The position numbers and the translations under genes were made by a program. The notes beneath the pieces were generated by a model. The model was not told the origin of the DNA. It did no database searches and worked only from the letters and a program-made list of their open reading frames with translations. This document shows, in pieces, positions 1-63,493 of a DNA stretch of 64,000 bases (within the stretch, counting starts at the first letter, position 1; each line of letters begins with the position of its first letter). The DNA is from Candidatus Bathyarchaeota archaeon (GTDB lineage: Archaea; Thermoproteota; Bathyarchaeia; TCS64), in NCBI GenBank assembly GCA_963769425.1, contig CAVYLP010000003.1, positions 227,705 to 291,704 on the forward strand, read 5' to 3'.

Positions 1-80
1 GGGCCATGCGAGGAAGTACATATTCTCAGACTCTGAGGCTAGGGGATTAACTCGCCGGGGAGACGGAGGACGAGTCATAT

Positions 81-314
81 CCCTACATGCACCCCTATCT
101 CAGGGATGAGAGCTTCATAGCCAACCTCTAGGCGAGGCAAACCGGCAAGGCCTTCAACGAGATGGCAAAGCTCCTGTACTTGGCCTCAAAATACAGGGGG
201 AGCACCTCACTCGTCACGGCCCCCAAGTTCGACCAGGTCAAGAACATCAAGCATCTAACCGACCACCTCCGGCGTATGAAGGCCAGAGACCTGGGCCTCT
301 TCATACATCGATGA
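81..314 (+). pseudogene. Decayed N-terminal fragment of a viral terminase large subunit (ATPase)
   Basis: Manual translation PYMHPYLRDESFIANL*ARQTGKAF...STSLVTAPKFDQVK. ARQTGK resembles the terminase Walker A and LVTAP..DQ the following motif. In-frame TAG at 129-131, early TGA at 312-314. Confidence 0.55.
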
Positions 315-35229: not shown

Positions 35230-35865
35230 ATGACAAAGATAACCGAGCGCATCAGGGGCGTAGCAGTCTCCCTCGCAGACGGCCTCAGCACCATGGTCTA
35301 TATACTCAAATGCGAGGGGGGGCTCATTCTTATAGACGTCGGCTTCACCCCCCTCTGCATCGAGAATATCGATGCAGAGCTGCGCGATATGGGGGAGAAG
35401 TGGGACAGCATTAAGCTCATACTCATCACACACGCCCACGGCGACCACATAGAGAACCTCCAAAAGGTCCTCGAACTCACAGGCCACCCAGAGGTGATGC
35501 TTGGAGCAGGAGACATGGACGCGCTGAAAGAACAGACAGGCGTTGAGGCTGACATGGGTTTAGAGCAAGGCGACATCATCGACGCCTGCGGTGGCATAGA
35601 AATTATAAACGTACCAGGCCACTCCGAGGGCAACCTTACCTATTATATCCGCGAGGAGAAGGCTATGATAGTCGGGGACACAATCTTCGGCGACGATGAC
35701 GGAAATCTCTACACCCCACCCGCTAAGTACAGTGACGATGCCGAAATGGCGAAACGGGAGATCAAGAAGCTACTCGACTACGATTTCGACAAACTCCTCC
35801 TTGCACATGGTAAGAATATACTTAGAAACGCGAAAGAGGAAGTCGAGAAACTGGCGAACTCCTAA
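35230..35865 (+). CDS. Metallo-beta-lactamase-fold hydrolase
   Basis: THAHGDH, PGHSEG, VGD, AHG. Confidence 0.92.
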   Translation: MTKITERIRGVAVSLADGLSTMVYILKCEGGLILIDVGFTPLCIENIDAELRDMGEKWDSIKLILITHAHGDHIENLQKVLELTGHPEVMLGAGDMDALKEQTGVEADMGLEQGDIIDACGGIEIINVPGHSEGNLTYYIREEKAMIVGDTIFGDDDGNLYTPPAKYSDDAEMAKREIKKLLDYDFDKLLLAHGKNILRNAKEEVEKLANS

Positions 35866-36158
35866 CCGAGCGCAGCTATTACATCTTTGACAACTTTGCC
35901 CGGTTCGAGGCCGAGTTGCTTCGCCTTTGTTGTTGCAGCCTTTATCGGGGCGTTGAGGACATCGTCAAAGGTCTTCACTCCGCTCACGATGGCTGCAGCG
36001 GAGCCGAACTTCTCGGCGGCTTCTATATTGAGGTAACCGCACATGACGTAGCCCTTGGCTCCCTTGATTAGGAGGAGTGGTGGCGCGTTCTCGGGTAGCG
36101 TCGACTTCATCGCCTGGAAAGTTTTACCTCCGATCTCAATCTTCTCGATCTCAAACAT
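35862..36158 (-). CDS. YunC/DUF1805 family protein
   Basis: KGYVMCGYLNI, AAIVSGV..FDD.L. Confidence 0.88.
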   Translation of the reverse strand: MFEIEKIEIGGKTFQAMKSTLPENAPPLLLIKGAKGYVMCGYLNIEAAEKFGSAAAIVSGVKTFDDVLNAPIKAATTKAKQLGLEPGKVVKDVIAALG

Positions 36159-36313
36159 ATCTAGTCGATAGATGAGGCTTGGATCTGGAGATTTAACCTC
36201 TTCGGGGTTAGCCACAGGTGTAAAAACCCATTTTTTTTTATTTATGAACAGTGGCAAAAATTATAGGAACAGGTCCACTGGAGTTGTAGAACTCTTGAAC
36301 GACTACATGTTCA

Positions 36314-36550
36314 TCGATTCCTAGTGGCAGGTGCAAAAAGTGATGAATTTCCGGGATACCACCCTACTAGGAATCCACACCCAACCAGCCAGTGAGCCAT
36401 ACCACCCTACTAGGAATCAGATTCCTAGTGGCAGGTATCAGAGGGTCGAGGTGAGCACTCCGCGATTCCACCCTACTAGGTATGGGATTCCTACCCACAG
36501 GTGCGAGTCATACCATGCTACTAGGAATCCGGTTCCTAGTGGCAGGAATC
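36314..36550. repeat. Array I: eight 19-21-bp quasi-palindromic units, three arranged as head-to-head pairs
   Basis: Units start at 36316, 36355, 36398, 36420, 36464, 36486, 36509 and 36531; e.g. CATACCACCCTACTAGGAATC-A-GATTCCTAGTGGCAGGTATC. Confidence 0.9.
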
Positions 36551-36783
36551 CACGCGGGGTTAGTTGCCATGAGGAAATTCCACTATTTAATCGCCCTAAA
36601 GGGACACAGGAAGATCCATTCGGGGCTTTCGCACTATCTATTCACTATAGATACACGAGTTCGCCCTGTAATTTTGATTTTTTTCGCAGCTTTTTAACCC
36701 CCACTCGTCGAGGTCCAGAACAAATAATAATCGGTTAACTGTTGTTAATTAAAATAGAGCTAAAAAGGCTAGCTTTAAGGAAC

Positions 36784-37020
36784 TCAGCCGGATTTCGATT
36801 TGAACATGGTGAAACCGCAGTTTCCGCATGTGTAGCGGTCACCGTGGTCGGCCATGAAGTATCCGCGCCCACACCTGTTGCAGAAGGGCCTCTTCCTCTC
36901 CAACTTACCGTCCTTGATCTCGTACTTCTTGTAGATCGAGTCGGCGCCCTTCTTCGGCTTCTTCTCAGCCGGTTTCTTATCCGCGGGCTTCTTGCCCTGT
37001 GGTGGTGGTGTTTGAGCCAT
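36784..37020 (-). CDS. rps27ae: 30S ribosomal protein S27ae (eS31)
   Basis: [21 protein letters not shown]. Confidence 0.96.
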
Positions 37021-39442: not shown

Positions 39443-39466
39443 TCACATCATCCCCAGCTGGCGGAG

Positions 39467-39559
39467 CGGGCCTGAGGGGATTTGAACCCCTGACCAACGG
39501 CTCTCTTCGACCCTAAGGTCCTAAAAGGCCGACGCTCTTCCTTGCTGAGCTACAGGCCC
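39467..39559 (-). tRNA. tRNA-Lys(TTT) with 19-nt intron (39503-39521) at 37/38
   Basis: GGGCCTG/CAGGCCC acceptor; BHB formed by CTTT/GAAG with a GACC-TTAG-GGTC hairpin. Confidence 0.93.
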
Positions 39560-39739: not shown

Positions 39740-39833
39740 GCGGTCGTAGTCCAGCCTGGTAGGACGCCAGCCCCCCACGAGTGTTTCTCGGGGAAAGTTG
39801 GTGACCCGGGTCCAATTCCCGGCGACCGCACCA
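39740..39833 (+). tRNA. tRNA-Gly(CCC) with 18-nt intron (39778-39795), CCA encoded
   Basis: GCGGTCG/CGACCGC acceptor; BHB formed by CCCC/GGGG; C33 and C55 atypical. Confidence 0.9.
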
Positions 39834-62277: not shown

Positions 62278-62713
62278 GGATGAACCTCAAATGATCCCTC
62301 AACGGGAACTGATTTAACATTTTCTAGGGTTGAGACGTGCGGGAACATATTGTAAATACAGTCAGGCTATGATATTGCCATGTTCATGTTTCTAACGATA
62401 TAAAAGTAAGTCAAGACCATCAATCATCCAAAGCACCCTGAACCTAGACCCAATCCGACTGAATTTCCATCAGCCTTCTCCGGTAAGGTTGGTAAGTATG
62501 AATCGGCGCGTTTTTCAAGTCTCCCCCATGATGGTAGCATAGTATAAGCGTTTTACAGAATAGCTTAATGACTCCTCACCGGTCCTTTGCGATGATTCAT
62601 CTGAGATTGAGTTCACCCGTATGGGTATCGACTGGAGAAGTGGAGGTTCGTTGGGTGGAGTAACATGTTTGCTGGTTGGTCGCGTATGCCTCGCTGGTAG
62701 GAATAAGGAAAAA

Positions 62714-63038
62714 CATCACTTTTTGCACCTGCCACTAGGAATCGAGACTCGTTACGCTAACCAACAGTTGGTCTGTGGTACACAGTAAGGGGGTACAACG
62801 GTACCCGGTAGGAGGGTACTTGGTACCATGTAGGAGGGCACCGACGGTACCCAGTAGGGTGGTACCATGGTACCCTGTAGCGTGGAACCGGCGCACGGGA
62901 TCTGTGTAACATGGTACCATGTAGCAGGGAACTCGATACCACGTAGTATGGTATATGGTACCCTGTAGGGTGGTACGGGGGACCCATTAGGGGGGTATAA
63001 GGTTTTTTCCACGTCTCGGTACCATGTAGCAGGGTACA
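62714..63038 (+). repeat. Array II: ten co-oriented 21-bp units plus a 32-bp inverted copy of the start of array I
   Basis: GGTACC-NNGTAGNNN-GGTACN units at 62777, 62800, 62822, 62846, 62869, 62913, 62935, 62957, 62979 and 63018. Confidence 0.92.
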
Positions 63039-63493
63039 GCGTGTTTTACGCCTCCTTTTGCTCTTCCTAGTGAAGATAAATCTTCGTTTGGAGGAGGACT
63101 GCTGAGACATTCAGGCTATGTGCGAGGCGGTCTGGGCCTCCTCTACTGGTGTCGTTCAAGATGGTTCTTTTCGCTCCCATGGCTAGTTGATGCCTTGCCT
63201 TGGGGCATGTAGAAAACTCATGGGATTTGCTCCTGCAGCAGGGAATATTGTGTGTAAGGATGGTGGTGAGCCGCTATGCTGGTATCCTTCTTTCTTCAGG
63301 GTAGGGGGTAGATGGATGGGGTATTCAACATGATTTCAAAGAGGAAACAGAAGCGTATACCGGCGACTTCTAATTTAACCTTGGAAAGTTGACTTTTACA
63401 GGTAAAAATCGGGGATTGTTCGTTTAGTGTCGAGAAACAATTCGACACAATTCTTAACCCAAACGCCGACGGAGGTCAACCTAGGCGTAGGGC

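Follow-up and report, generated by a model that had tools for sequence, protein, structure and literature searches.

What role is played by a cluster of short palindromic sites located between two core genes of an archaeal chromosome? This question was raised by a 64,000-nucleotide stretch of DNA from Candidatus Bathyarchaeota archaeon (assembly GCA_963769425.1, contig CAVYLP010000003.1, positions 227,705 to 291,704 of the forward strand), the whole of which is termed the window. A preliminary description had named the cluster Array I and proposed that it was a platform for a dimeric protein, acting as a centromere, a replication origin or a chromosome-organizing site. The analyses described here show that Array I is one copy of a family of dispersed arrays, whose units are native to the spacer before a small gene (gene 2) of a terminase cassette. 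Judged from sequence comparisons, Array I is probably an orphan, expanded copy of the putative recognition region of the gene 2 protein, akin to a phage pac or cos site or to an operator, that is present in multiple copies and specific to this species. Positions are those of the window unless a contig prefix (C1 to C6) is given.

Array I is a variable copy of a dispersed repeat

Reading of the sequence from 35900 to 37000, together with a repeat finder, recovered four A units and four inverted B units at the positions previously reported, including three dyads of ~42 bp (A2/B2, A3/B3 and A4/B4), a degenerate B copy at 36486 and single sites near 36316 and 36355 (Table 1). Apart from its orientation, B also differs from A in sequence, being 1 nt shorter and having GTGG in place of the GTAG present in the reverse complement of A. 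The A units have a CTAC-TA-GG core on the plus strand and the B units a CCAC-TA-GG core on the minus strand. Within the dyads, the units are separated by 1 nt (A2/B2 and A4/B4) or 2 nt (A3/B3), and the A2/B2 pair (repeat-finder pair I14) has 10-nt arms with 100% complementarity. B1 and A1 are single units separated by a 21-nt A/T-rich linker. The motif CTAGGAAWC was detected 6 times in the window versus an expectation of 1.15, a number reached in 0 of 100 shuffles, excluding a chance origin of Array I. The 14-mer TTCCTAGTGGCAGG was present exactly four times in the window, with three copies inside Array I; allowing three mismatches gave 7 matches versus 5.5 expected, which was not significant. 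The spacing of the B units was irregular (104, 66 and 45 nt), excluding a CRISPR array in agreement with the preliminary description, and the material between the units was itself repeated.

Array I does not stand alone. In the genome (2.55 Mb in six contigs, 91% complete), 18 to 22 arrays with more than 200 units were found, the unit counts being dependent on the regular expressions used. A strict unit pattern detected 22 clusters of at least three units, containing 134 units and merging into 18 loci, while a looser scan detected 222 units in 25 repeat regions; the strict motif had 329 matches in the genome versus 183 in shuffles. The units share the core W-Y-C-C-N-S-CTAC-W-A-GG-(A/T)-A, or CC-N2-3-CTAC-N-A-GGAA in a shorter form, and neighboring units on the same strand were spaced by 20 to 24 nt in 99 of 133 cases, with a mode of 21. 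The genes beside the arrays were unrelated housekeeping genes, and a comparison of flanks between copies detected neither shared cargo nor paralogous long genes.

Array I belongs to a subfamily of four copies (C3:264020, C3:378998, C4:396208 and C6:437466). In an alignment of these copies, the left end was clean at 36316 and homology ceased beyond 36578. Two of the four had one extra A unit plus spacer, forming a 43-nt indel. The left end GATTCCTAGTGGCAGG and the linker were common to ten copies, the linker following the B unit in all 10 of these left-end copies, and the right end in eight copies consisted of a B unit, a GC-rich palindrome and a terminal ...CCATGAGGAAAT. Median identity between copies rose from 48% over the 60 nt upstream to 79% over the 60 nt with which the element begins. 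Two subfamilies were 92 to 98% identical within each, with flanks at background identity. The repeat module has been either recently homogenized or recently spread. Solo forms, with the tail immediately after a single B unit, were observed as well as expanded forms bounded by direct B units, and longer loci comprised several modules of linker plus tandem units strung together.

The gap containing Array I had been described as a gene-free region of ~600 bp with AT-rich flanks, which was borne out. It extends for 526 bp between an open reading frame (ORF) at 35862-36257 and rpS27ae at 36784-37020, or for about 620 bp if the former gene begins at the conserved Met34, and the flanks have a GC content of 0.38 to 0.41. 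These neighbors were assigned by Pfam as DUF1805 and ribosomal protein S27ae, while further genes were read by eye as S24e, Spt4 and RpoE'. The gene order DUF1805-S27ae-S24e was retained in 12 relatives of the same genus, but reading of the orthologous DUF1805-S27ae spacer by eye detected no unit array in any of them, and this spacer was 54 to 464 nt long as compared to 636 nt here by the same measure. Conservation of Array I at this position was thus not observed. In the two closest relatives (L014 in G050 and L015 in G052), the spacer contained an apparent cysteine-rich ORF of ~90 aa on the minus strand, as read by eye. The element DNA was matched in only 1 of 60 other genomes of the family, namely, in 1/17 of the genus (G052, with a diverged match) and 0/43 of other genera. 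A search of ~185,000 species, from which the source genome itself was perhaps left out, with the exact tandem-unit pattern gave 29 single, chance-like matches in unrelated bacteria.

Variation was also detected at the strain level in metagenome contigs (not raw reads) from four sediment and peat runs. Contigs from other contexts broke at 36313-36316, and depth over Array I was severalfold above that of the flanks. In one contig, 390 different letters stood in place of positions 36207-36800. Three of the runs each yielded a contig, tied to this locus through the unique right flank, in which 36439 adjoined 36557 directly, indicative of a strain without dyads 3 and 4 at this locus. Array I is, therefore, a lineage-specific and variable insertion.

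These data bear on the proposal of a replication origin, a parS-like centromere or a chromosome-organizing site, which we consider very improbable and already largely refuted. The AT-rich flanks and repeated dyad sites are in keeping with such a site, and the cumulative GC skew of C3 has a broad minimum at ~235-255 kb (window positions of about 7-27 kb), 10 to 30 kb from Array I, although without a sharp switch at the array. The presence of about 20 similar arrays in one genome argues against this proposal, as do the array-free spacers of the 12 relatives, the occurrence of the element in only 1/60 family genomes, the polymorphism in dyad number and the identity of the flanking genes. Mapping relative to cdc6, as suggested in the preliminary description, located the only Cdc6_C match at C1:24396-24674, on another contig than Array I; this single gene (C1:24.4-25.5 kb) has its own AT-rich stretch and repeated boxes, without any units. 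The region in question (C1:23690-24060), beside the only orc1/cdc6, comprises the AT-rich stretch (GC content of 0.32) and two CAGTGGA...GGGGG boxes, which we take to resemble origin recognition boxes, and is the likelier conventional origin. No orc1/cdc6 gene was located near the skew minimum of C3.

A terminase cassette as the source of the units

The tail following the arrays was found to be the start of gene 2, running on in other copies into the peptide MRKY(L/V)FTE.ERRRL.... Its reading frame remained open for 92 aa at C4:352123, and in other copies it was interrupted at differing positions. At Array I, the homology stops after 36578; a possible second piece, ATCTATTCAC at 36636-36645, is unproven. 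A second gene, gene 1, had its 3' end, with ...GQSKAYLYW as the last residues, before several of the arrays. Of the 18 loci with arrays, 7 had remnants of gene 1 and/or gene 2 (E < 1e-3) or the tail motif in the anticipated order and on the anticipated strand, and weaker arrays carried further gene remnants. A nearly intact arrangement was present in G052, in which gene 1 is separated from gene 2 by a spacer of ~110 nt comprising a single B-like unit together with the linker and two A units. The units are native to the spacer preceding the small gene of this cassette. Gene 1 of G052, which had to be read across three frames, encodes an ABC_tran ATPase with a GNAT domain.

Gene 1 represents a family of ~480 aa with 174 relatives, several of which are named from Bathyarchaeota. 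Among 301 sampled genomes of Bathyarchaeia, 75 carried it, at one to four copies each and often on short contigs, and it was also present in 4 of 17 relatives in the genus; this genome had only fragments. Searches with gene 1 gave weak P-loop matches only with PADLOC and a generic ABC ATPase only with NCBIfam. Gene 2 followed gene 1 at 3/3 loci of the genus and 15/30 loci of the class. A large terminase (TerL; Terminase_6N/6C) was detected by Pfam beside gene 1 in seven of the eight loci whose ORFs were searched. By tblastn, TerL was adjacent and on the same strand in 21/30 loci (19/21 where the downstream flank extended for 1.2 kb or more). The complete order of gene 1, gene 2 and TerL was present in 10 loci. 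The only full TerL of this genome (C2:93277-94770; phrog_2, E = 4e-34) has an intact gene 2 paralogue (C2:95193) immediately upstream, the two together lying at C2:93277-95193, and is surrounded by cellular genes. No portal or capsid gene was recognized beside the cassette in two genomes, namely, this one and a 19-kb stretch from another genus.

On balance, and as part of our joint explanation with that for Array I, we regard it as likely that the cassette is virus derived and of a packaging type, comprising the ABC-ATPase/GNAT gene, the repeats, gene 2 and TerL, and that it occurs in many Bathyarchaeia. It could be a new mobile or defense-type module. An AbiEi/AbiEii toxin-antitoxin pair was observed a few kilobases from the cassette of another genus (L105, G017:C50, 5186-6755), consistent with an accessory or defense-island setting. 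No description of the cassette or the repeats was found in the literature searched, passages of PMC10541130 included.

The window contains parts of two other members of the repeat family (Table 1). In the second, composite array, the units are related (GGTACC...GTAG...GGTACC), an exact copy of the B core is present at 62728, and positions 62714-62743 are the exact reverse complement of 36316-36345. The 242-bp segment of this array was 94% identical to C3:176588-176827. Elsewhere in the genome, a 6.8-kb inverted segmental duplication was observed (C3:45281-52075 and C6:1003708-1011169), of which the C6 duplicate has ~665 bp of extra composite repeats (C6:1008588-1009252 versus C3:47191/2). Flank identity shifts from 97% to 88% at this very junction, so that neither sharp insertion boundaries nor a duplication could be discerned. 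An unrelated repeat family of 400 to 580 bp, with ~13 copies of 80 to 93% identity on all six contigs (for example, C1:182405-182984), could be a MITE (miniature inverted-repeat transposable element), a small RNA or a gene fragment.

Table 1. Features of Array I and of related repeats and gene remnants in the window
Feature	Position	Strand	Details and basis
Whole Array I element	36316..36578	+	Order B1, linker, A1, spacer, A2-B2, spacer, A3-B3, A4-B4, tail; alignment of four closest copies
B1 unit	36316..36334	-	Sharp left end of element
A/T-rich linker ("leader" in tandem arrays)	36332..36352	+	A5, N, then T-rich
A1 unit	36356..36375	+	Sequence reading, repeat finder, unit scan
Dyad A2 (36399-36418) + B2 (36420-36439)	36399..36439	both	Repeat-finder pair I14
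Dyad A3 (36464-36483) + degenerate B3 (36486-36504)	36464..36504	both	Sequence reading, repeat finder
Dyad A4 (36510-36529) + B4 (36531-36550)	36510..36550	both	Repeat-finder pair I6, unit scan
Tail module ending ATGAGGAAAT, ATG at 36569	36551..36578	+	Decayed gene 2 start
Second, composite array	62502..63045	-	Tandem GGTACC-type units ~62780-63045, B + linker 62707-62743, then 242-bp shared segment
Gene 1 C-terminus remnant upstream of second array	63070..63183	-	Local tblastn, 38 aa, 36% identity, E = 2.9e-6
End of 13-unit tandem array (C3:227194-227729), with tail and gene 2 remnant	1..25	+	Unit scans
TerL fragment directly downstream of 13-unit array	72..302	+	Local tblastn, 80 aa, 70% identical to intact TerL of this genome, E = 4e-24

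Gene 2 protein and explanations for the arrays

Gene 2 had 9 relatives at E ≤ 0.001 in a database of 5.8 billion proteins, searched with a word prefilter that can miss relatives, and further orthologues were found beside gene 1 in other genomes; none were detected among viral contigs, and the ESM Atlas contained unnamed clusters only. While a first monomer model was poor (predicted local distance difference test [pLDDT] of 62), a model built from 24 sequences had a pLDDT of 78, with an extended N terminus followed by helices at residues 8-20, 25-57 and 69-83. A homodimer prediction scored 0.80 versus 0.00 for the best of three controls; for comparison, 20 of 30 proteins with solved structures of one-chain pairs reached that mark, as did 1 of 23 whose solved structures were single chains. 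Contacts agreed between runs to 96% or more, the partner had a pLDDT of 89 or above, and the interface included residues 1-7 from each copy. The gene 2 protein is, hence, predicted to self-associate as a dimer. The order of the structural elements is only a suggestion of a ribbon-helix-helix fold, as no solved structure matches gene 2. Gene 2, which encodes a small, basic protein, occupies the position of a small terminase, directly before TerL, but no sequence or fold similarity to known small terminases was detected.

These predictions lend plausibility to one part of the preliminary description, the platform for a dimeric protein, given the 21-bp phasing of the units and the ancestral location of a predicted-dimer gene downstream of them; the centromere, origin and chromosome-organizing parts found no support. 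In the explanation that we favor, the module would descend from the short spacer between genes 1 and 2 of a packaging cassette and would have been copied to about twenty intergenic sites in this genome. Its units may have multiplied by recombination or slippage while the flanking cassette genes decayed, such that the Array I copy keeps only the first codons of gene 2, the spacer in relatives being short and free of arrays. Each core of ~16 nt would be a putative recognition site for the gene 2 protein. Phasing of these sites at two helical turns, in direct and inverted orientations, could permit several dimers to be loaded cooperatively, in an arrangement like the recognition region of a pac or cos site or the operator of a small-terminase gene. 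We infer both protein binding and a terminase-site role for the units from these features. The placement typical of pac/cos was observed in the ancestral context, with units before gene 2 and gene 2 before TerL, but not at Array I, this orphan being most likely a relic or selfish passenger and at most a decoy site.

Several observations weigh against this explanation. In other genera, the spacer between genes 1 and 2 was no longer than about 60 nt in 14 of 15 loci, with the genes overlapping in some (the remaining spacer was 248 nt), and contained at most one unit-like palindrome with a T-run in some loci and none in several. No arrays were detected around seven intact cassettes, which together with the short, array-free spacers indicates that the arrays are not needed for the cassette. 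Nor was there a unit array upstream of the intact gene 2-TerL pair of this genome. Gene 2 has no family in Pfam, PHROGs or NCBIfam, gave nothing below an E value of 0.1 in a PDB sequence search and no Foldseek match at E ≤ 0.001, and at 73 to 97 aa is small for a small terminase. The available text of PMC4737164 reports that the SF6 small terminase's DNA-binding domain has little specificity for pac repeats. Finally, it would be strange for twenty whole cassettes to have decayed independently and in each case left nothing but the spacer, a hint that the module moves or is homogenized on its own, and no transposase, target-site duplication or terminal inverted repeat was found to explain such a spread.

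The scattered arrays might alternatively be working, pac-like entry sites for a stand-alone terminase cassette, the sharp left end representing the terminase cut at which packaging or transfer starts. We consider this to be improbable. If true, the cassette would be a novel type of self-spreading element with a terminase in place of a transposase or else a device that packages the chromosome from numerous starting sites, much as in gene-transfer agents or lateral transduction. We know of no such chromosomal-packaging system in the bathyarchaeial class.

A different explanation, which we view as rather unlikely but deserving of consideration, is that the arrays are selfish palindromic repeats of the repetitive extragenic palindrome (REP)/bacterial interspersed mosaic element (BIME) or BOX kind. 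Their hairpins would be copied by some enzyme or by recombination, with the terminase link being historical or due to a target preference and with no dedicated binding protein. The modular mosaic loci, head-to-head dyads and tandem clusters are as anticipated for such repeats, as are the variability at strain and species levels, the sharp ends, the near-identical copies beside diverged flanks and the solo versus expanded forms bounded by direct B units. Of 12 copies that we scored by reading the table of ORFs, 6 were located between convergent genes. The units contain a conserved GTAG/CTAC as in GTAG-tagged REPs, and REPs without a dedicated transposase exist according to the available text of PMC3733652, in which tagged REPs are, however, reported from bacterial phyla only. 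Furthermore, the CTAC is inside the unit rather than being an unpaired end tag, and the stems are weak. In favor of hairpins, pairing of single-unit flanks, at 3.78 versus 3.46 ± 0.05 of 6 positions in shuffled partners, was slightly elevated in a control that ignores the relatedness of units; against them, A.A was the commonest state at one stem position, and G.T mismatches were not more numerous than A.C (69 versus 81). A duplex DNA-binding site would better account for units that are phased at 21 bp and have a conserved core of 16 nt that is asymmetric.

The enzymes and ends of known mobile repeats were also sought. No matches were obtained for Y1/RAYT (PF01797) or for TnpB (PF07282) and IS200/IS605 mobilizers in this 91%-complete genome, and a scan of the genome for perfect hairpins was uninformative. 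The preliminary description had raised the possibility of a known MITE or insertion sequence (IS) end. The units are indeed dispersed, sharply bounded and multicopy, and in common with MITEs the element is noncoding, with discrete ends and presence/absence polymorphism, but it does not correspond to a previously described element. A strict MITE was rejected, as the ends are direct (B on the left, B plus tail on the right) rather than inverted; neither a target-site duplication nor a terminal inverted repeat was present at the four aligned copies.

Coding and RNA-level explanations were also assessed. An overlapping ORF conserved at the protein level was not found: the candidate at 36331-36738 has no Pfam family and is frame inconsistent, with one A unit occurring in two frames and with the 43-nt indel separating copies that are otherwise 95 to 98% identical. 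The arrays might instead act in RNA, as a transcribed 5' leader of gene 2 or a small RNA whose four hairpins terminate or attenuate transcription, mark a site of processing or sequester a protein, but there is only a slim chance that this is so. Folding of Array I was more stable than that of shuffles (z = -4.6 for the plus strand and -3.1 for the minus strand, with 0/200 shuffles as stable). In the A/B dyads, the CTAC arm faces GTGG, producing a G.U pair on the plus strand only, and two other genera have one spacer palindrome followed by a T-run, resembling a terminator. Any inverted repeat, however, yields such z scores, and neither strand was clearly favored. The long tandem arrays retain the core motif without convincing stems, and the motif is conserved in both orientations, which is not required of an RNA motif. 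Rfam detected two tRNAs only in the window, and a C/D-box reading of GTGATGA in the linker was discarded as the heptamer is not conserved between copies. Two tRNA calls of 94 nt each were located at 39466-39559 (anticodon undetermined; also found by Rfam) and 39740-39833 (tRNA-Val; ARAGORN only), and this length suggests that both genes contain introns.

For Array I itself, the outcome is deflationary, as it is most probably neither an origin nor a centromere and the copy in the window is an orphan. The wider interest is in the family and the cassette. Repeats of this kind can rarely be traced to a defined source, which here is the spacer preceding gene 2 of the terminase cassette. The cassette combines a fused ABC-ATPase/GNAT protein, a small protein predicted to be dimeric and a bona fide TerL, with no capsid or portal gene recognized nearby. 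If the units were the recognition sites of the small protein, they would provide a testable protein-DNA pair for the biology of archaeal packaging or mobile elements.

Comparison with known systems

Dispersed palindromic repeats of REP/BIME type have been studied at length in bacteria, but there is little documentation of them for archaea. The behavior of the present family appears by analogy to be most like that of bacterial REP/BIME clusters, other than in lacking their end tag and RAYT. As in REP/BIMEs and REPIN doublets, described in the available text of PMC3733652, palindromic units occur head to head, tail to tail and in tandem with linker motifs, are extragenic and strain variable and contain GTAG/CTAC. 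Differences from REP/BIMEs are the archaeal host, the internal position of the tetranucleotide, the weak stems, the absence of a RAYT and the tracing of the units to the spacer of a specific gene.

The BOX elements of Streptococcus pneumoniae combine head and tail modules with middle modules that are repeated in tandem in varying number, and they are dispersed in intergenic regions. Array I resembles these elements in its modular build and its dispersed intergenic copies but has no relation to them in sequence, host, origin or unit. Ribbon-helix-helix repressors, such as plasmid omega and ParG, have phased operator sites in direct and inverted orientations before the gene for a small dimeric protein. 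The similarity lies in many short, phased sites of both orientations before a small gene with a predicted dimeric product; the difference is that a ribbon-helix-helix fold for gene 2 is suggested only by an extended segment followed by helices, with no structural match.

In the case of phage pac and cos sites, two differences are that gene 2 is not demonstrably a small terminase and that no capsid or portal genes accompany the cassette. The repeats have, moreover, multiplied here and lie scattered as orphan copies in the host chromosome; to our knowledge, pac or cos sites have not been described as doing so. The likeness is one of position, with the units located directly upstream of a small gene that precedes TerL. 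Among the systems cited, the closest parallel is the pac region of phage SPP1, in which, in the available text of PMC4737164, three sets of direct repeats (boxA, boxB and boxC) span the promoters and the start of the small-terminase gene, beside the large-terminase gene.

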